The notes below the pieces were generated by a model that was given only the letters and a program-made list of their open reading frames with translations, was not told where the DNA came from and made no database searches. Both the position numbers and the translations under genes were made by a program. DNA of 13,219 nucleotides from positions 1 to 13,219 of IMG/VR virus record IMGVR_UViG_3300045988_160937; one strand, 5' to 3'. Source of the stretch: a virus. Shown here piece by piece: positions 3,601-13,219 of this stretch (positions are counted from its first letter, which is position 1; every line of letters starts with the position of its first letter).

Positions 3601-5764
3601 TAAATCAAAAATTGAGGAGGTTTTACAAAGTATAAAATCTAAAGCAAAAATAAGTAAGAAAGGTAAAAAATACTACTACAATTTTGCTTGCGGTTTTGAC
3701 ACTGAAACTTCCTCTTTTTATCAAAATTTAAAAACGGGTAAAACTTCTTTATCTTTAGATAATGTAAATAAAAATGAAATTAAAGACTATGTAAAAAGAG
3801 GTATTGTATATGAGTGGACTTTTGGTATATATTCAAATGGTGATATTTTAATTGTAATTGGTAGAACACTTGAAGAATATCAAGAATTATATAATATGAT
3901 AACTAATATTTTTGATACAAACGCTATTAATTTATTAATTTACGTACACAACCTTGCTTTTGATTTTCAATTTATAAGAGGTTATTTTACCTTTGATAAA
4001 GTGTTTGCGATTGAAGAAAGAAAAGTATTAAAGGCTATTACAAATGATGGCGTTGAATATCGTTGTAGTTATCAATTAAGTGGTTATTCTTTAAGTGTTG
4101 TTGCCAAAAATCTAACAAAGCATAAAATTGAAAAGTTAGTAGGCGATTTAGATTATTCTAAAATACGACATTCAACAACACCACTTACACAAGAAGAGTT
4201 AGATTATTGTATTCACGACGTTATAATTATATTATACTATATTGATGAAACAATTACAAATGACGGAGATATTACTAAAATACCCCTTACCAAAACGGGT
4301 TATGTACGTAATTATTGTCGCAAGGCTTGTTATAAGGTAGTAGGTGATAAAAAGGCAAGCAAAGATAAAACACGCAAATACTATGCTTTAATGCAAAAAT
4401 TAACCTTAACTACTGATGAATACGATTTACTAAAAACTTCTTTTATGGGAGGTTTTACACACGCAAATGCAATGAATTGTGGTAAAGTGTATGAAAATGT
4501 TAGAAGTTTTGATGAGACTTCCGCATATCCGACTGTGATGATTGCCGAGAAATTTCCGATGAGTAAAGGTATACAAATAAATCATATTACTAAACAAGAA
4601 TTTGAAGAAAAAGTACGCAATTATTGTTGCGTATTCGACGTTGAATTAAATGACGTTGAAAGTTTGATTTACTATGAAAATTATATCTCATCATCAAAAT
4701 GTAGAAGTCTTGAAAATCAACTTGAAAATAATGGACGCATTGTTTCCGCAAAACGTCTAATAATATCAATAACTAATATTGATTGGGAGATTATCAAACG
4801 CACATATTCTTTTTCATCCTTTAGAATAGGTAGATTTTATTATTATCAAAAAGGGTATTTACCTACTGATTTTGTAAAATCAATTCTAAAACTTTATAGT
4901 GATAAAACAACCCTAAAGGACGTTGAAGGAAAAGAAACTGAATACTTATCATCTAAAGGGATGATTAATTCGGCATATGGTTGTTGCGTTACTGATATTG
5001 TTCGTGATGAAATAATTTATGATATGGAAGGGTGGCATAAAGAAAAAAACACAACTGAAAATATTGATAAAATTATAACAAAATATAATAAATCAAGAAA
5101 TAGATTTCTTTTCTATGCATGGGGCGTTTTTGTAACCGCATATGCACGTGCAAATCTTTGGAGTGGTATTTTTGAATTAAAAGAAGATTATATTTATAGT
5201 GATACCGATTCGCTAAAATTTATTAATTATGATAAACATAAACATTTTTTTGAATTGTATAACAATAGACTAATTTATAAACTTCAAAAAGCCCTAGACT
5301 ATCATAAAATACCTTACGAGGCTTACATACCAAAAACAATTAAAGGCGTTGAAAAAATATTAGGTGTATGGGATGATGAAGGCATATATGATAAATTTAA
5401 GACTTTAGGTGCAAAACGATATATGTATTTTAAAAATGATAAACTAACTTTAACCATAAGTGGTGTAAATAAAAAAACCGCAACACCGTGGTTGCTAAAA
5501 CATTTTGCAAATGATGATATTAAACAAGTTGATAAAGTTTTTAATGCTTTTGAAAACGAGTTAGAATTTTCTAAAGACGCAACAGGTAAACAAACACACA
5601 CATATTTAGATTTCGAATATGAAGGTTATGTAAAAGATTATACAGGTAAATTAGGTTATTATCATGAGTTTGCAAGCATACATTTAGAAAGTACTACATA
5701 CTCACTTTCAATCAGTCAACAATTTTTAGACTATTTAAAAGGTATTAAGTATATAAAAATTTAA
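3575..5764 (+). CDS. Protein-primed family-B DNA polymerase (phi29 gp2-like)
   Basis: Motifs line up with phi29 DNA polymerase. Exo I is FACGFDTETSS (phi29 YSCDFETTT). Exo II is YVHNLAFDFQFI (YFHNLKFDGAFI). Exo III is YCIHDV (YIKND). Pre-motif A is FMGGFTHAN (YRGGFTWLN). Motif A is FDETSAYP (FDVNSLYP). Motif B is KGMINSAYGCCV (KLMLNSLYGKF). Motif C is YIYSDTDSLKF (IIYCDTDSIHL). KxY is LGAKRYMYF. The start at 3575 has no clear SD; an in-frame GAGGAGG at 3614-3620 makes the exact start uncertain. Confidence 0.93.
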   Translation: MEILIFSSNKSKIEEVLQSIKSKAKISKKGKKYYYNFACGFDTETSSFYQNLKTGKTSLSLDNVNKNEIKDYVKRGIVYEWTFGIYSNGDILIVIGRTLEEYQELYNMITNIFDTNAINLLIYVHNLAFDFQFIRGYFTFDKVFAIEERKVLKAITNDGVEYRCSYQLSGYSLSVVAKNLTKHKIEKLVGDLDYSKIRHSTTPLTQEELDYCIHDVIIILYYIDETITNDGDITKIPLTKTGYVRNYCRKACYKVVGDKKASKDKTRKYYALMQKLTLTTDEYDLLKTSFMGGFTHANAMNCGKVYENVRSFDETSAYPTVMIAEKFPMSKGIQINHITKQEFEEKVRNYCCVFDVELNDVESLIYYENYISSSKCRSLENQLENNGRIVSAKRLIISITNIDWEIIKRTYSFSSFRIGRFYYYQKGYLPTDFVKSILKLYSDKTTLKDVEGKETEYLSSKGMINSAYGCCVTDIVRDEIIYDMEGWHKEKNTTENIDKIITKYNKSRNRFLFYAWGVFVTAYARANLWSGIFELKEDYIYSDTDSLKFINYDKHKHFFELYNNRLIYKLQKALDYHKIPYEAYIPKTIKGVEKILGVWDDEGIYDKFKTLGAKRYMYFKNDKLTLTISGVNKKTATPWLLKHFANDDIKQVDKVFNAFENELEFSKDATGKQTHTYLDFEYEGYVKDYTGKLGYYHEFASIHLESTTYSLSISQQFLDYLKGIKYIKI

Positions 5765-5803
5765 AGTGTAAGTATGATTAACTTACACTTTATTTTATTT
5801 TAC
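5762..5803. terminator. Bidirectional rho-independent terminator between the convergent transcription units
   Basis: A 12-bp stem, 5762-5773 ttaagtgtaagt pairing with 5781-5792 acttacacttat, encloses the loop atgatta. T-tracts lie on both sides: tattttattttac downstream on +, and tttttatatac on the - strand side. It sits between the polymerase stop (5764) and the ATPase stop (5795). Confidence 0.7.
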
Positions 5804-6922
5804 AGGAAATCCGCAAGCCATTAAATAGTTGCGTACTACTTCACCAATCATATTATCTTGATAGAAAACTTTATCAAGTTTAAAAAACCATACAATTTTT
5901 TCTTCAAGTTTTGTAACAGGCACATTTATTCGACGTCTATATTTTGGTGAAGGGTTAAACTCAAGAGAATAAATAACTGTTTCCTGTTCTTTTCTTATTG
6001 GTGTTGTTTTTTTATGTATATATGTATATACGCATTTATGTTCGTCATCTCTAATAATTTCACATTGCAAGGTTTCACCTTCAAACTTAATATAGTAAAT
6101 AAATAAGATATCTTCAAATTTATATTTGTAAGGTAAATGAGGGTATATTCCAATTTCCCATGTATTGCCTTCACCTGTAATCATATTTAATTTTGGATTA
6201 TCAAAAGCAAAATAAACATTACTTTTCTTATTTTTTCCAATACCGTCGGCAAATTCAACTGCAACTTTTAATTTACTATTTCCATAACTGTAAATATCAA
6301 TATCGCCCGGTTTCATGCGTTTGGCTCTAGTTAAACCCATTTCACCAAAATAAGGGTTATAAGGGTTTATTGAGTTACCGCACATATATATTTCAACATT
6401 TTCACGTAATCTAATAATAGTTGAAAGTGTGTTTGTAAATAATACAAATTCATCTTCTAAATAGCCGTTTCTTGATATAAATTCGTCAAATAAAATTGTT
6501 GTAACATTTGGAAAACTTGCCGATTTATCGTGTTCCATTGACGCTAAAGAAAACGCATAACAAAAAGGTTTTTTGTCTAACACGTCACTATTTAAAGTTT
6601 CATCAAAATTTGCTAAAAACCACATTGAAGATTTGTAAACAATTTTTGAAAATTTACCTTTAGTGATATCTTTTACTCTACCTTCATTAACTAAATTTTC
6701 AAAGGTTCGTGCTCCACGTTTGCCTCTAAAATCTTCAAGCATACGACGCAATATTGCTCCTTCATCTTTATAACCGCTTTCTACATATCTTTGAAGTATT
6801 AACTCTAATACACTAAATGATTTACCATTTGAACGTTCACCAAAAATAACAAAATATTTACAACCTCCTACTTCTTTGCTTTTTTCTCTAATTCTAGTTA
6901 AACGATAGTATTTAGGTTTCAT
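5795..6922 (-). CDS. DNA encapsidation (packaging) ATPase, phi29 gp16-like
   Basis: Walker A FVIFGERSNGKSFS matches phi29 gp16 FVIGARGIGKSYA. Walker B TTILFDEFIS matches STIVFDEFIRE. NSINPYNPYF matches NAVSVVNPYF. It is the last gene of the late unit, as in phi29. Its start is coupled to the upstream tail gene stop (TAATG). Confidence 0.88.
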   Translation of the reverse strand: MKPKYYRLTRIREKSKEVGGCKYFVIFGERSNGKSFSVLELILQRYVESGYKDEGAILRRMLEDFRGKRGARTFENLVNEGRVKDITKGKFSKIVYKSSMWFLANFDETLNSDVLDKKPFCYAFSLASMEHDKSASFPNVTTILFDEFISRNGYLEDEFVLFTNTLSTIIRLRENVEIYMCGNSINPYNPYFGEMGLTRAKRMKPGDIDIYSYGNSKLKVAVEFADGIGKNKKSNVYFAFDNPKLNMITGEGNTWEIGIYPHLPYKYKFEDILFIYYIKFEGETLQCEIIRDDEHKCVYTYIHKKTTPIRKEQETVIYSLEFNPSPKYRRRINVPVTKLEEKIVWFFKLDKVFYQDNMIGEVVRNYLMACGFPVK

Positions 6923-9357
6923 TATAAAATAACTCCATTTATTAGCATTTCATATATTTTATTTTTTTCTTCTTGTGTTGCCGTTGACAAATTTTCAATG
7001 TGAATTTCTTTAACTTGCGTGTAACCTTTCATATTTTTAAGTAATCTAGTTTTATTAAGTGGTAATCCTAATAATTTTTTATAGTGTTCTTGTGAATTAG
7101 AAACGACAGGACGAGTTACTAACATGTATATTTCAAAAGGCATAGCCAAATCATTTACATTGCCACTTGTTTCACCTTTAATAGCATTAGAGGAAGTTAA
7201 GGCGTTGATATCACCCATAATCATACCACTAGTTGCACGTGCTCCACCTAATATACCAATAATAGGATTACCTGTTATTGCAAAAGCACCTATTGACACT
7301 GCATAATCAATTACACCTTTTATATTAGTAATTAATAAATCTTGATTAGTTTTGTACGTTCCGTCACTACCAATTGGTATTTTAACACCGCATTTACCTT
7401 GTTGTGTTGTTATAAGAACGTCGTGTGAATTATCAGTTAATGAATCTCCACGTTTTACTAGTAATAATGCTTGTCCTGTATCAAAATCAATAGATATATC
7501 AATTTTAATATAATAACCCATAAAAATTTGAGGTGAAATTTGAAAATAACCAAAAAATGGTATATAAATTTTATATTGTGATTGATAATCTAAATAATTA
7601 TTAAAATAAGGTTCAATCTTAAAATTAGCAATATTAATACTATTATGTGGATTTGATAAATAATAATTATTAAGGGTAAAAGTAGATTTTCCAATTGTAA
7701 TTTTATCAAAATACGTGCTAGTTCTAAAGAATTTATTAACTTCAAAAGGGTATAACATAATAGATGATATATATTCATTAGGATTTGCAAAAAAAGTACC
7801 TATCACTGATTGGTCTATTTTACTACATTGATTACATAATCTAGTTATAGTGTTAATATTTCCTGAAAATTTTTTATTGAATGAAGTTTGTTCCCATGAT
7901 TTTAAATTATCTCCACCTTGTTCGCCTGTTGTAGACATTGTAGAAATTATAAAAGGTAAAGTCACTGATTGCTTAAAAGGGTTGTTTTGTGGTGTTAAAT
8001 TTTCAACCAAAGCAAGTTGTGAAGTATTATCAACTACTAATTCATTATCAGGCAAATTAGCGTCAAATTCAAATTCGTTTCTTGCAATTAAGCCTTCTAA
8101 ATTTCCAATCTCATTTTTAAAACTCATTAATTCATCACACGATAAATAAAGCACATAGAAATTATTAGGTGTTAATACAATATTGGTAATATAATAATAT
8201 CTATTTAGATTATTGATATAACAATAATTAAAAAATGGAAGTTCGTTATAAACAATCTTAATAATAGGATTTAATATTGAAGTACTATCTTTAAAAATTA
8301 TATTACACTCATAAATTTTAACTAAATCATTTTCTTTATTAACTTTACTATCTTCCGCATTATTTTGATAAAAAGTTGCTTTAATCGAGGGTGCCCTCCA
8401 ATATGCATATAAAGTTAAATCGTGTGTTACAGGTGTGTTAAAATCATAAGCACTATACATAATATTTGATTTGCTCCAACCAATAAATGTATAACCTTCT
8501 TTGGTAGGTATATCTAAGGGTTTACCAACCAATTGATTATATTGTCTTGTTTGTGAAGGTTCTTGAGGTGTACCTCCTTGCATATCAAAATTAATGGTAT
8601 AACTTTGAATATTATAATTTGCATATAATGTTATATCATCTTCGATAATTTGTTCTCCAAATATATAAGGGTCGCCACCTTCTTCAATGCTCCAATATAA
8701 AAACTTATAACCTTCTTTAGTACAATTATAATCATAGTCGCTAGTTACTTTACTTCCATAATCAACAAAAACAAAGTCATTAGGGTAAATTTCTTTAACA
8801 ATTCCACCTTTTGTGATATAATTAATTTTAACTTGTTGTTTCTTAAAAATAGCCGTTACTTGTATAGGTTCAAAAATATTACTACCATATAAAATACTCA
8901 CATCCTCAAAGGAAGGTAGTTGCCAATATTCAAAAGTATAACCAACTTTTGTGCTTGTTAGAAAATCATAATACGATATTATTTGTCCTATTGGTTTGAA
9001 AAATGGATTTGTCAATGTTTCATCTAGTGTACCACCATTTAAGGCATAATCAATACCAACAAATTCAACACTTGAATAAAAATAATTAAAGAAAGTGTCG
9101 TCTATTTCTTGATTATACCAATCAAAATTTAAGTCTTGATAATCTACTTCTTCCCAACCACCGTCTTGCAAATAAGCCGTTATATAACTTCCATCGCTTT
9201 TTCTTTTATATTGCAACTCTTGTTTTAATAGTTGCATACCGGTATATTGAACGTGTGCACTATCTTCAAAATTAACACTTATTTCAATTTTAGTTACTTG
9301 TTCGTCAACTAAAAGTTTAAAAGTATCTTTAAGTCTATATCTTCCATTTATAAACAT
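6922..9357 (-). CDS. Tail protein / receptor-binding tail knob (811 aa) with three N-terminal Listeria-Bacteroides (Flg_new-type) repeats
   Basis: ORF track starts at 9405, but that start overlaps a terminator hairpin. The ATG at 9357 (MFINGRYRL) has SD AAGGAGG 8 nt upstream. Three ~75-aa repeats of the Flg_new pattern end in NGG...GYTFEYWQ...VTAIFKK, KGG...KEGYKFLYWS...ITLYANY, and INFDMQGG...PTKEGYTFIGWS...THDLTLYAYW. The C-terminal ~450 aa is Gly-rich near the end (GNPIIGILGGARATSG). It is the largest virion gene, located between the capsid and ATPase genes. Confidence 0.7.
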   Translation of the reverse strand: MFINGRYRLKDTFKLLVDEQVTKIEISVNFEDSAHVQYTGMQLLKQELQYKRKSDGSYITAYLQDGGWEEVDYQDLNFDWYNQEIDDTFFNYFYSSVEFVGIDYALNGGTLDETLTNPFFKPIGQIISYYDFLTSTKVGYTFEYWQLPSFEDVSILYGSNIFEPIQVTAIFKKQQVKINYITKGGIVKEIYPNDFVFVDYGSKVTSDYDYNCTKEGYKFLYWSIEEGGDPYIFGEQIIEDDITLYANYNIQSYTINFDMQGGTPQEPSQTRQYNQLVGKPLDIPTKEGYTFIGWSKSNIMYSAYDFNTPVTHDLTLYAYWRAPSIKATFYQNNAEDSKVNKENDLVKIYECNIIFKDSTSILNPIIKIVYNELPFFNYCYINNLNRYYYITNIVLTPNNFYVLYLSCDELMSFKNEIGNLEGLIARNEFEFDANLPDNELVVDNTSQLALVENLTPQNNPFKQSVTLPFIISTMSTTGEQGGDNLKSWEQTSFNKKFSGNINTITRLCNQCSKIDQSVIGTFFANPNEYISSIMLYPFEVNKFFRTSTYFDKITIGKSTFTLNNYYLSNPHNSINIANFKIEPYFNNYLDYQSQYKIYIPFFGYFQISPQIFMGYYIKIDISIDFDTGQALLLVKRGDSLTDNSHDVLITTQQGKCGVKIPIGSDGTYKTNQDLLITNIKGVIDYAVSIGAFAITGNPIIGILGGARATSGMIMGDINALTSSNAIKGETSGNVNDLAMPFEIYMLVTRPVVSNSQEHYKKLLGLPLNKTRLLKNMKGYTQVKEIHIENLSTATQEEKNKIYEMLINGVIL
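8395..9072 (-). repeat. Three tandem protein-level Listeria-Bacteroides (Flg_new-like) repeat modules within the tail gene
   Basis: The repeat segments are read by eye from the translated sequence; coordinates are approximate. The third copy matches the family consensus best (vtedltLYAkW ending). Confidence 0.6.
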
Positions 9358-9375
9358 TTTAAATTCCTCCTTTTT

Positions 9376-9407
9376 ATAAAAATAAAGAGTGGTGTATTCC
9401 ACCACTC
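9376..9407 (-). terminator. Intrinsic terminator/attenuator downstream of the major capsid gene (partial read-through into the tail gene)
   Basis: On the - strand: gagtggtg-gaata-caccactc, an 8-bp stem with a 5-nt loop, followed by tttatttttat, then SD AAGGAGG and the tail gene ATG at 9357. Confidence 0.6.
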
Positions 9408-10592: not shown

Positions 10593-11165
10593 TTAATAAC
10601 CTACATAATACAACGTAAATGTTTGACCACTTGTCACATTATCACATTCAATAACCCAATCATTACTAGAATTGGCTGTAATATAAAAATTATAAGTTTT
10701 AGTATCAATTGTTATTTGCCCTACTAAAAATTTACCAATACCCGTAACAATATTAATAGGTAATGCAATGCTAGTGCCACCTACGATTGTTGATATAAAC
10801 AAATTTCTAGTATATGGAAAATCTATATATTTTATAATACTTTTTTTATCACTATTAAACCTACCATTATAACTATTGTAAGTACTTTTAAAAGTTACAT
10901 TTACTTCACCGCTTTCAATATAAGCAACTACACTAAAACCATATACATAAAATGTGAAATATGTTGATTTTTTAACAACATTAGTTATAAAGTCGTTATA
11001 TTCTACACCATTTATCACGATACCACTGACAATTGTATGCTTATAGTAATTATGCTCTAATAGTTCTATTAAATTATATGATAAGTCTAATTTTTGAGTT
11101 TGTACGGGTGCCGTAATATTAATATTTTCTAAATCTATAATTAAATAACCGCCTTTTTTTGACAT
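10593..11165 (-). CDS. Virion-region protein, unknown (190 aa, beta-rich Y/T/V/N composition); possible head fibre/decoration or tail component
   Basis: SD AAGGAGG precedes the ATG at 11165. It lies between the connector-region genes and the capsid gene. I recognise no catalytic motif. Confidence 0.4.
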   Translation of the reverse strand: MSKKGGYLIIDLENINITAPVQTQKLDLSYNLIELLEHNYYKHTIVSGIVINGVEYNDFITNVVKKSTYFTFYVYGFSVVAYIESGEVNVTFKSTYNSYNGRFNSDKKSIIKYIDFPYTRNLFISTIVGGTSIALPINIVTGIGKFLVGQITIDTKTYNFYITANSSNDWVIECDNVTSGQTFTLYYVGY

Positions 11166-11178
11166 TATTAAAACCTCC

Positions 11179-11862
11179 TTATAGCCAAATTTTTAAAGTT
11201 AGATAATCATCAAATGACTTAAGAATAATATCATAAAAATTATTCATCGTTCTTAAGTCTAATTCTTTTAAGATTAAATCTTGAGAAGGCATATCGCTAC
11301 CACTAGTCTCAATCTTTTCATCTCCTGTTTCTTTTGTGGTTCGTGTTTCTTCGTTGTCATTCATTTCACCACTATTGATTGATTGATTCAAGTTTGTAAA
11401 GTCCTCACTATTATAACCGCTAACTTGATTAGTATTAGTAACTTTACTTTTAATATTTCTTGTTTCATCGTGTTGCAAATTAGGTGTACGTGTTTTAGTT
11501 TCTTTCTTACTATCTAAAATATTATATTTAGTTGTTAAACTTTCAAATATATTAGTCCAATTTGCAATATTTTTGATATAAATCATATATGAAAGACTTT
11601 TAATTTTCTCTTCGTCTAATTGGTTGTTTTCATTGAGAAAAATTTCAACAATTTTAGCGATGATTTTATAACCACATTTTTGATAAATTAATGATACGTC
11701 AAGCATTTCATTAGTTTCATCACTTTGTAAAAATAAGGGTATATCAACTTGCCTTTCAGTTAAAGTTTGCTTTAAATAATATATAAATCCTCTAAAATCT
11801 TGCTTAAAACTATTCGGCATTGTTTCTATTAGTGTCGGTCGGTTCAGTACTTCGCAACTCAT
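11179..11862 (-). CDS. Virion-region protein with a long acidic S/T/N/E-rich low-complexity C-terminal half (227 aa); scaffolding protein or lower-collar candidate
   Basis: ORF track starts at 11886. I prefer the ATG at 11862 (MSCEVLNRPT), which has SD AAGGAGG (complement of 11873-11879) 8 nt upstream. It overlaps the connector gene 3' end by 53 nt in another frame. Confidence 0.45.
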   Translation of the reverse strand: MSCEVLNRPTLIETMPNSFKQDFRGFIYYLKQTLTERQVDIPLFLQSDETNEMLDVSLIYQKCGYKIIAKIVEIFLNENNQLDEEKIKSLSYMIYIKNIANWTNIFESLTTKYNILDSKKETKTRTPNLQHDETRNIKSKVTNTNQVSGYNSEDFTNLNQSINSGEMNDNEETRTTKETGDEKIETSGSDMPSQDLILKELDLRTMNNFYDIILKSFDDYLTLKIWL

Positions 11863-12835
11863 CTTTATCAACCTCCTTATTTTCAACTTCTTGTATCATT
11901 TCATCTTTTTTAAGTTTCCACGATAAGCCTAAATCAACTTGAATATTTGTGCCAAACATTTCATTGACTTTGTCAAAACTTTCTTGACGACTCAACAACA
12001 TATCATCTACAAACGGTAACAAAGCGTCATCATTTAATTGACTTTCACTACTATTAAGACTTTCTCTCTTCATATTATAATTGGCATTTAAGCCCAATTC
12101 ATTAAACCAACTTGCTTTATAATATTGAAGTAATTCAATTAATTGTGTGATTGATTGATTGTTGTTTTGTCCGTTGAAAAGACTTTTGATGACTTCTTCA
12201 TTCATAATTGCTTGTGATGAAAAAACACTTAACAAATCACCTTCTTCGAGTTTTTTTATCATCACTTCGTAACTTTCTTTTGTGTTCTTATCACTTGTTG
12301 CAACAATTGTCATTAATCTTGTTAACACACTTGATATTTTTAAGGACAATTCAGTTTCAGTTAAAGCCGTTGCATATCTTCTACATAATGGTGTTAAGCC
12401 AATTAAAGTACTATCATTTTTGATAATAACACAATTCTTACCAACTTCAAGTGTAAAACTTCCATATACAGGATTTGCAATAATAAATTGTTTTGGTACA
12501 TAGTTGCCGTCAAGTTCACCACCCCATGCACCAAAGCATATATACAAATCGCCTTCACCTTTCAAGTCTTCAGTTAAGGGTTGTAGCATTCCATTTGATA
12601 AAGTTTTAGCCTTGAAACAACAAAGATAACCAATTGATTGTAACCACAATTCAAGTAATCGTTTATCAATAGTTTTAGGTAAATTTTCATACTTAAACAT
12701 TCTAGAAGTTTTAGAAAACATATATTGCATATTATTTCTAACACATACTTGTTTATTTTTAAAATCATAAACATTAGAATTAATCCAACTATACCCCATA
12801 CCACCTATAAAATCATTCTCTTTTTTCCTACCCAT
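11810..12835 (-). CDS. Head-tail connector / portal protein, phi29 gp10-like (upper collar)
   Basis: MGRKKEN...YENLPKTIDKRLLELWLQSIGYLCCFK aligns with phi29 gp10 MARKRSN...[27 protein letters not shown]. C-terminal ESFDKVNEMFGTNIQVDLG aligns with EEACEKINELYGLNVKVKF. SD AAGGTGG is present, and the start overlaps the upstream stop (TAATG). Confidence 0.85.
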   Translation of the reverse strand: MGRKKENDFIGGMGYSWINSNVYDFKNKQVCVRNNMQYMFSKTSRMFKYENLPKTIDKRLLELWLQSIGYLCCFKAKTLSNGMLQPLTEDLKGEGDLYICFGAWGGELDGNYVPKQFIIANPVYGSFTLEVGKNCVIIKNDSTLIGLTPLCRRYATALTETELSLKISSVLTRLMTIVATSDKNTKESYEVMIKKLEEGDLLSVFSSQAIMNEEVIKSLFNGQNNNQSITQLIELLQYYKASWFNELGLNANYNMKRESLNSSESQLNDDALLPFVDDMLLSRQESFDKVNEMFGTNIQVDLGLSWKLKKDEMIQEVENKEVDKDELRSTEPTDTNRNNAE

Positions 12836-13074
12836 TAGTTGCCACCTTCTTTTTTAAGATTTTCTAATTCATCAATAGCCTTGTCAACTTCTTGTTTAAC
12901 TTTTTCAAACTTTTTATTTTTAATTGCTTTATAAACATTATAACATAGTTTAAATAAAATCCATAAAATTTGTATTGAAATAATTATAACACCTAGTATA
13001 CTTTCTATTTGTGAAATACCTAAAGCCATACCAATAGCAATTAATGTTGTATCAATAATGTTGTCATACTTCAT
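12835..13074 (-). CDS. Small membrane protein (79 aa, two predicted TM helices plus a charged coiled-coil-like C-terminus); class-II-holin-like, or alternatively a phi29 p16.7-like membrane anchor
   Basis: Hydrophobic stretches TTLIAIGMALGISQI and ILGVIIISIQILWILFKL are followed by KNKKFEKVKQEVDKAIDELENLKKEGGN. It is the first gene after the right-end promoter, with SD AGGAGG and ATG at 13074. Confidence 0.45.
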   Translation of the reverse strand: MKYDNIIDTTLIAIGMALGISQIESILGVIIISIQILWILFKLCYNVYKAIKNKKFEKVKQEVDKAIDELENLKKEGGN

Positions 13075-13094
13075 AACTTATACCTCCTATAAAT

Positions 13095-13123
13095 ATTATA
13101 TCATAAATAAATAACTACGTCAA
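13095..13123 (-). promoter_or_regulatory. Right-end promoter driving the leftward structural/late operon: consensus sigma70 with extended -10
   Basis: The - strand reads TTGACG (complement of 13118-13123), a 17-nt spacer, then TGa TATAAT (-10 at complement of 13095-13100). It is immediately followed by ataggaggtataagtt ATG (13074) and abuts the ITR. Confidence 0.7.
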
Positions 13124-13219
13124 CCCCTAAATACCTAAATACATAAATACTTCTATACATAACTACACCCCTCTACATTTAATTCGCCAAATTCGGGGGG
13201 AGGGGGGGGATTACTTTAG
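13124..13219. repeat. Right inverted terminal repeat (96 bp)
   Basis: It is the exact reverse complement of 1-96. Confidence 0.9.

Follow-up and report, generated by a model that had tools for sequence, protein, structure and literature searches.

A phi29 gp9-type tail knob with an N-terminal array of Flg_new repeats in a 13.2-kb podovirus genome, and its possible role in adsorption

The window examined here comprises all 13,219 nucleotides (nt) of the IMG/VR virus record IMGVR_UViG_3300045988_160937. Because perfectly complementary inverted terminal repeats (ITRs) of 96 nt close its two ends (1-96 and 13124-13219), the window is a complete linear genome, that of a phi29-like podovirus. Its minus strand carries a gene for an 811-amino-acid (aa) protein in which a tail knob of the phi29 gp9 type follows an N-terminal extension made up of a small orphan domain and three Flg_new (Listeria-Bacteroides) repeats (Table 1). 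We have very little doubt about these domain assignments. The fusion is conserved among relatives, is under purifying selection and has a counterpart in a second, distant knob lineage. With moderate confidence we favour an explanation in which the C-terminal part would build the tail knob and the extension would form arms that adsorb the phage to its bacterial host.

The knob part of the protein escapes standard models. Residues 324-811 had no Pfam match even at E<=10, PHROGs returned nothing for the whole protein or for its halves, and PF16838 (Caud_tail_N) and PF20934 (phi29_gp9_C), which detect the phi29 gp9 control, recognised neither the target nor proteins P0005, P0021 and P0008. A profile of 8 family sequences found nothing in the PDB. 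A profile of 80 core-only members had a single match there, phi29 gp9 (5fb4, E=1.1e-7), in collinear stretches that lie in the N-terminal tube part and, for the main one, across the hydrophobic loop and the C-terminal domain. Comparison of the knob family with gp9 by hhalign gave a probability of 95.3% (E=2.4e-8). An AlphaFold2 (AF2) model built from the 80-sequence alignment had a predicted local distance difference test score (pLDDT) of 82.8 and a predicted template modelling score (pTM) of 0.75. In a Foldseek search of the PDB this model matched phi29 gp9 (5fb5, E=5.7e-13, template modelling (TM) score 0.52 over about 610 columns), C1 gp12 (4eo2, E=4e-11) and the Andhra knob (8egs_Y, E=2.4e-9), with the next match at E=0.14. 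Matches in BFVD were 'Podoviridae sp.' proteins, the tail knob gp9 of phage Nf and entries annotated as 'distal tube protein' or 'major tail protein'.

The first-pass annotation had proposed a tail-knob-like C-terminal domain, and the profile, hhalign and Foldseek results all place the C-terminal 488 aa with phi29 gp9 and with no non-tail protein. The fold is common to phi29 gp9 (5FB4/5FB5), C1 gp12 (4EO2) and the Andhra knob (8EGS), to which the target knob is ~10-12% identical. The likeness to phi29 gp9 also includes collinear motifs, a hydrophobic L-loop ahead of a conserved C-terminal domain, and placement in the same genomic module. We conclude from sequence profiles and the predicted structure that this region is a true, very divergent homologue of the gp9-type knob. 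The 323-aa N-terminal extension, in contrast, is found in the target and not in gp9, C1 gp12 or the Andhra knob.

A segment of the knob is the predicted equivalent of the membrane-active L-loop of gp9 (Table 1). It contains the most hydrophobic 19-aa window of the entire protein (residues 686-704; Kyte-Doolittle (KD) value 1.61) and aligns, in both hhalign and hmmsearch, with gp9 418-497, the L-loop region. In the AF2 model the segment is disordered (pLDDT <50) and has helices on both flanks. The L-loop of phi29 is kept in the lumen of the knob and leaves it at ejection, forming a hydrophobic helix barrel for membrane penetration (PMC6542822).

The extension was searched with two curated repeat models. 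PF09479 (Flg_new) matched the target at 93.5 bits (E=8.5e-27, cutoff 27) and NCBIfam TIGR02543 at 35.9 bits (cutoff 20.95). The first-pass annotation had called these Flg_new-type, or Listeria-Bacteroides, repeats and had named a search with PF09479 and related families beforehand as the test; with both models above their curated cutoffs, the identification holds. The residues it gave, 112-337, follow the numbering of an 827-aa open reading frame (ORF), with an offset of 16, and correspond to 102-323 in the 811-aa protein. Its description of three textbook repeats fits the second (R2) and third (R3), whereas the first (R1) is degenerate by hidden Markov model (HMM): when each repeat was scanned singly, which gave the scores in Table 1, R1 fell below the Pfam cutoff. 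The repeat period is ~75 aa, and the GYxFxGW ... TLYAxW motifs are intact in R3 and near-intact in R2; R1 lacks the last strand motif. R1 shares 35% identity with R2 (Smith-Waterman z=10.3 against shuffles). An AF2 model of residues 1-335, in which the repeats overall are at pLDDT about 80-94, shows for R1 the four-strand pattern of the other repeats, with pLDDT blocks mostly at 72-91 and one at 55; R2 is at about 90 and R3 at about 94. Judged by alignment and model, R1 is a genuine though degenerate repeat.

The sole PDB sequence match of the whole target was the InlB B-repeat 2y5p. Foldseek superposed the repeat model on this structure with a TM score of 0.80-0.83 and a root-mean-square deviation of 1.9-2.1 Å at 29-30% identity. 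The structural neighbours of the repeats are surface or adhesin modules, namely InlB, the MubR domain of YwfG and a spirochaete sialidase domain, which makes ligand binding by the arms plausible. The likeness to the InlB B-repeat (PF09479, TIGR02543, 2Y5P) thus covers HMM scores above cutoff, the fold and a tandem period of ~75 aa. In contrast to bacterial surface proteins, of which a 1798-aa Lachnospiraceae protein (L005) is an example, the target is a virion tail protein without signal peptide or wall anchor.

Ahead of the repeats lies a separate domain of ~100 aa that the first-pass annotation had overlooked. Residues 1-101 had no Pfam or PHROG match, and their homologues were confined to four close relatives among the 230 proteins collected. 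Kinship with the ~110-aa N-extension of the 620-650-aa class of knobs was considered and gave no signal.

The fusion itself is real. Mechanically, the ORF extends over 6922..9405 and opens at a GTG, which accounts for the 827-aa numbering; we took the ATG at 9357, the coordinate that the first-pass annotation also gave, as the start because a strong Shine-Dalgarno sequence precedes it. Four protein clusters from other assemblies (P0001-4), 82-94% identical to the target in a word-indexed search, hold the full-length fusion, all with Flg_new. Five independent IMG/VR contigs likewise have the 811-aa ORF intact; a sixth is cut short at its end. Since Flg_new is typically bacterial, one might suppose that a mis-assembly or a frameshift had joined a fragment of a bacterial surface protein to a knob gene; this is the sole ground for raising the idea, and nothing was found in its support. 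In addition to the conservation of the fusion, which rules such an artefact out, GC content is uniform along the gene, every segment is under purifying selection and the genome is complete with perfect ITRs. We therefore regard an artefact as vanishingly improbable.

The knob belongs to a very large family. An exhaustive profile search returned 17,904 cluster representatives (50% identity clusters) at E<=1e-3, 14,346 of them at E<=1e-10. Among the best 150 representatives listed, the commonest form is a stand-alone protein of ~520-540 aa; others are ~630 aa long with an unrelated N-extension of ~110 aa, and some reach 890-1466 aa. Distant relatives without repeats (22-29% identity) begin exactly at target residue 324, and the fusion point coincides with Met1 of the stand-alone knob homologues. 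The repeat R3 directly abuts the knob core.

Seven long proteins beyond the target cluster also carry Flg_new above threshold among the best 150 listed (P0113, P0119, P0121, P0142, P0145, P0157 and P0159). Their N-extensions span 650-953 aa and, where the core boundary could be resolved, a repeat ends a few residues ahead of the knob core. In a crude neighbour-joining tree of knob cores the seven form one clade, far from the target clade, and Flg_new-knob fusions are therefore present in at least two lineages. Thus the architecture is not unique to the target but recurs in a second, distant lineage. No IMG/VR relatives were found for P0157, P0121 and P0159. A search with P0113 and a metagenome scan were captured by the Flg_new motif and returned Flg_new genes of bacteria and large phages, with no knob genes. 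Flg_new proteins 24-39% identical to P0113 were observed on IMG/VR contigs L006-L039 (35-244 kb, many of 100-240 kb), and the repeat is also present in Lak megaphages and an archaeal virus. The module is common among gut phage genomes and reaches far beyond the phi29-like viruses. In our literature search no paper connected phage tails with Flg_new or the Listeria-Bacteroides repeat.

Arrays of accessory domains have been described before on phi29-like knobs, so that the concept proposed here is an extension rather than a surprise. Arrays of immunoglobulin (Ig)-like domains, predicted to lie lateral to the tail tube, decorate the knobs of phi29-like phages of Gram-negative bacteria, where they are proposed to bind surface carbohydrate (Evseev et al. 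2024, PMC11476376). In these phages, Acinetobacter phage Phanie (gp10), Salmonella phage Astrid as well as Pectobacterium phage DU_PP_III, the knob is split between two genes and the Ig-like array stands at the N-terminus of the C-part (PMC11476376). The target resembles the Phanie type in having tandem small beta-domains appended to a knob protein. It differs in that the knob is unsplit, with the core HMM spanning positions 3-526 within one ORF, that the array lies ahead of the whole knob and that the repeats are of the beta-grasp InlB B-repeat kind rather than Ig-like. Split knobs in the arrangement of the Phanie type do occur in two more distant relatives: L047 carries one at 3721-4170 (149 aa) and 4167-6263 (698 aa), and L046 an apparent one at 4072-4536 and 4549-6978 (809 aa). 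In both, the gene of ~150 aa corresponds to core positions 1-144 and the next gene to a large, unrelated and unannotated N-extension followed by core ~240-526.

By analogy with phi29 gp9, we propose that six copies of residues 324-811 would assemble into the knob in which the collar tube ends. The hydrophobic loop would be kept within this tube until genome ejection, when it would leave it and form a membrane-penetrating barrel of helices. Residues 1-323 would project outward as six lateral arms with the orphan domain at their distal end, and these arms would attach to a glycan or a protein on the surface of the host bacterium. They would in this way supply the adsorption function that phi29 assigns to its separate gp12 appendages. 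For the extension taken by itself, we consider a role as adhesion arm somewhat more probable than not having one.

The pre-neck appendage of phi29, gp12, is a tailspike in the form of a beta-helix trimer that is attached to the collar (PMC6542822, PMC11476376). The target arm has only the proposed adsorption role in common with it and no sequence similarity, and in contrast to the trimer its candidate adhesion module would consist of monomeric beta-grasp repeats covalently joined to the knob subunit. Any gp12-like role of the target would be one of analogy, not homology.

Neither a gp12 appendage nor a gp13 tip hydrolase can be recognised in the genome, unlike in phi29. Pfam, PHROGs and tblastn detected no gp12-, gp13- or gp15-like gene in the complete genome; phi29 gp12 itself found nothing in the window by tblastn, and no tailspike match to Pfam or PHROGs was seen genome-wide. 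The same three methods recognised no endolysin or peptidoglycan hydrolase. Because a recognisable gp12-like appendage, gp13 and endolysin are all missing, a combined role in adhesion and penetration is plausible, and the first-pass suggestion that one protein might cover the functions of both gp9 and gp12 is likewise plausible by analogy. Comparison with relatives is in keeping with the arrangement. L001, whose knob is core-only, has a separate 619-aa gene for an SGNH/GDSL hydrolase immediately upstream of it. Where the knob is N-extended (L002, L046, L047 and the window), no large tail gene has an appendage or enzyme domain that can be recognised; L002 does encode a 343-aa protein without assigned family between its collar and capsid genes.

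Sequence variation was compared among the close relatives. The arm (residues 1-323) is under purifying selection across six independent genomes, with a ratio of nonsynonymous to synonymous substitution (dN/dS) of 0.16-0.22. The value is 0.16-0.19 for the repeats, similar to that of the knob core, and 0.22 for residues 1-101, which are therefore also under constraint. Relative to P0004 and L045, residues about 501-745 (about 7125-7855) are 60-74% identical and the rest of the protein is >90% identical. Such mosaic replacement in one sub-lineage suggests, from the alignments, recombination within the knob.

Several points weigh against an adhesive arm. To our knowledge, no ligand has been described for any Flg_new domain, and the partner of the InlB B-repeat is likewise undefined; adhesion is for this reason argued by analogy. 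The binding site may be carried by the orphan N-terminal domain and not by the repeats. The absence of gp12 rests on sequence methods, and standard Pfam models also miss the knob studied here. The comparison in which an N-extension replaces a separate receptor binder covers only a few genomes. Among close relatives the repeats vary no more than the knob does and show no hypervariability, and divergence is strongest, and mosaic, in the distal knob with the L-loop (60-74% identity in P0004), a pattern unlike the usual signature of a domain that determines host range. Lastly, the 190-aa protein encoded between the probable collar and capsid genes (Table 1) could be the actual receptor binder or fibre. 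Its N-terminal motif (GGYxIxDLxN; GGYLIIDLENINI) weakly resembles the N-termini of the 343-aa protein of L002 and a 148-aa protein of L001 (blastp E 0.07-0.5), and these two are 48% identical to each other over 85 aa. The pattern is reminiscent of fibres, with their conserved anchor and variable distal part.

These same observations can be read as evidence for a structural spacer or brace, in which the repeats wrap the collar-knob junction or set the length of the arm and receptor recognition lies in the N-terminal domain, the 190-aa protein or the tip of the knob. Repeats without hypervariability, with a dN/dS close to that of the knob core, would suit such a part, as would the degeneracy of R1, which is expected of a spacer; the anchor-like motif that the 190-aa protein weakly shares with variable-length proteins of relatives, and the location of mosaic divergence in the distal knob, would point to recognition elsewhere. 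However, a spacer would not need an adhesin-type fold recruited in two separate lineages, and most members of the family have no extension, hence the knob requires no brace. We consider the spacer a rather unlikely alternative to the adhesion arm.

The arms could instead attach to molecules of the animal host, for example mucin glycans or immunoglobulin, and hold the phage in mucus in the manner of Ig-like capsid decorations. The apparent origin of the window in gut metagenomes would suit this idea, as would weak Foldseek neighbours of the repeats among MucBP/Mub repeats and a Ruminococcus gnavus immunoglobulin-binding protein (E 0.015-0.03). However, these mucus- and Ig-binding neighbours fall short of significance, a mucus anchor would be oddly placed at the tail tip, where it would occlude the infection apparatus, and no separate bacterial receptor binder was identified that would free the arms for such a task. 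Retention in mucus is therefore quite improbable as the function of the arms.

The adhesion reading can be carried further, to a protein of 811 aa that would be the entire machine for engaging the host. Six Flg_new arms tipped by the N-terminal domain would be the sole receptor binder and the loop the sole penetration device, with no tailspike, tip hydrolase or classical endolysin, and the host would perhaps be a low-GC gut member of the Bacillota with a reduced or atypical wall. We think this unlikely. If it were true, Flg_new would be a widespread, unrecognised receptor-binding module of phages, since the second knob lineage, Lak megaphages and large gut phage contigs also carry it.

The repeats had further been offered as a handle on the host clade and as a sign of mimicry or capture of a host surface protein. 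Their best bacterial matches are 30-45% identical and are scattered over Oscillospiraceae, Lachnospiraceae, Bacilli, Acholeplasmataceae and Prevotella, and Flg_new is also common in gut phages. With matches so weak and so scattered taxonomically, we rejected host inference from the repeats as unreliable. The case for mimicry or capture is weak as well, given the low identity and the lack of any sign of recent capture; the matches are consistent with an old acquisition of a common gut surface-protein module. A 358-aa Flg_new protein ~33% identical to the target repeats was observed at L049:5454-6530, on a chromosomal contig of 26% GC. The RelA/SpoT protein of L049 shares a 90%-identity cluster with one named 'Clostridium sp. 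CAG:524', and this gut bacterium of 26% GC is, on that sequence match, the one possible lead to the type of host. The window itself appears to derive from the human gut: distant knob relatives come from human faecal samples, and the close relatives are all from one IMG/VR dataset.

The link to phi29 gp9 provides an annotation for many metagenomic proteins, as the family numbers ~18,000 clusters and its knob part is unrecognised by Pfam and PHROGs. If the arms bind the host, Flg_new would become a recognisable receptor-binding module of gut podoviruses, and probably of other gut phages, that could aid the prediction of host range, and the arms would offer a first functional context in which to seek an Flg_new ligand. 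A genome of 13.2 kb with a connector, a collar and one multifunctional knob would approach the minimal tail of a tailed phage, which would be useful for engineering and for thinking on tail evolution.

Table 1. Features of the 811-aa protein, its gene and the neighbouring structural and candidate lysis genes in the window.
Feature	Coordinates	Strand	Evidence or remark
Knob gene with N-terminal adhesin-repeat extension, 811 aa	6922..9357	-	stop TAA 6922-6924
Shine-Dalgarno AAAGGAGG	9366..9373	-	8 nt upstream of ATG 9357, read from sequence
Orphan N-terminal domain, residues 1-101	9055..9357	-	AF2 pLDDT <50
Flg_new repeat R1, degenerate, residues 102-175 (GYTFEYW ... VTAIFKK)	8833..9054	-	Pfam 14.6 bits, E=0.036, partial
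Flg_new repeat R2, residues 176-251 (GYKFLYW ... ITLYANY)	8605..8832	-	Pfam 42.1 bits, E=9e-11
Flg_new repeat R3, residues 252-323 (GYTFIGW ... LTLYAYW)	8389..8604	-	Pfam 62.4 bits, E=4e-17; also TIGR02543 and InlB B-repeat 2y5p
Tail knob (distal tube) of the phi29 gp9 type, complete, residues 324-811	6925..8388	-	profile, hhalign, AF2/Foldseek
Predicted L-loop equivalent, residues about 681-729	7171..7317	-	Gly/Ala/Ser/Thr-rich (47%), hydrophobic
190-aa protein, beta-rich by sequence, between probable collar and capsid genes	10593..11165	-	no family match
235-aa probable lower collar protein (gp11 analogue)	11179..11886	-	position after connector; blastp to L002_219 E=1.6e-6
Connector / upper collar (gp10-like)	11810..12835	-	Pfam Phage_connector E=1.5e-13; PHROG 2038; tblastn phi29 gp10 E=6.5e-13
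79-aa membrane-like protein, sole lysis-like candidate	12835..13074		

The remaining gene content agrees with the earlier assignment to phi29-like podoviruses, as Phi29_MCP, a connector, a gp16 ATPase, a protein-primed PolB and inverted terminal repeats are all present. From the right end, the minus-strand arm encodes the 79-aa membrane-like protein, the connector, the 235-aa protein, the 190-aa protein, Phi29_MCP, the knob and a gp16-like ATPase. In the sequence TAATG the stop of the knob gene and the ATG of the ATPase gene overlap, an arrangement suggestive of translational coupling. The 235-aa protein had no direct match to phi29 gp11, and L002_219, the relative listed in Table 1, in turn matches L001_203 and L047_293; this probable collar protein is likely the docking partner of the knob. 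When the 190-aa and the 235-aa protein were searched as single sequences against the PDB, no meaningful match came back. On the plus strand, the left arm contains small ORFs, a 212-aa protein and a protein-primed DNA polymerase of family B that matches Pfam DNA_pol_B_2 and PHROG 1907; the 212-aa ORF lies immediately upstream of the polymerase gene and overlaps it. No tRNA and no Rfam family, including pRNA, was found in the window.

The window has a GC content of ~27%, and its genes stop at 15 TAA, 1 TAG and 0 TGA codons. Nothing points to an alternative genetic code: TGG encodes all 40 Trp residues of the main genes, and under table 11 ORFs cover 95% of the window. Two adjacent plus-strand ORFs of ~106 aa (279-602 and 653-973), which had no family match, resemble tandem paralogues; when their translations were compared by eye, both contained EYD..YYYSP.FKGN and IDKLTG. 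Both ITRs open with a C-rich run (CCCCCCCCTCCCCCC, about 11-25). Directly inside them lie two near-identical promoter-like elements that face inward, one at 237-271 on the plus strand (TTGACA, a spacer and an extended -10, TGGTATAAT) and one at 13089-13123 on the minus strand (TTGACG ... TGATATAAT), and these could drive the two convergent gene arms.

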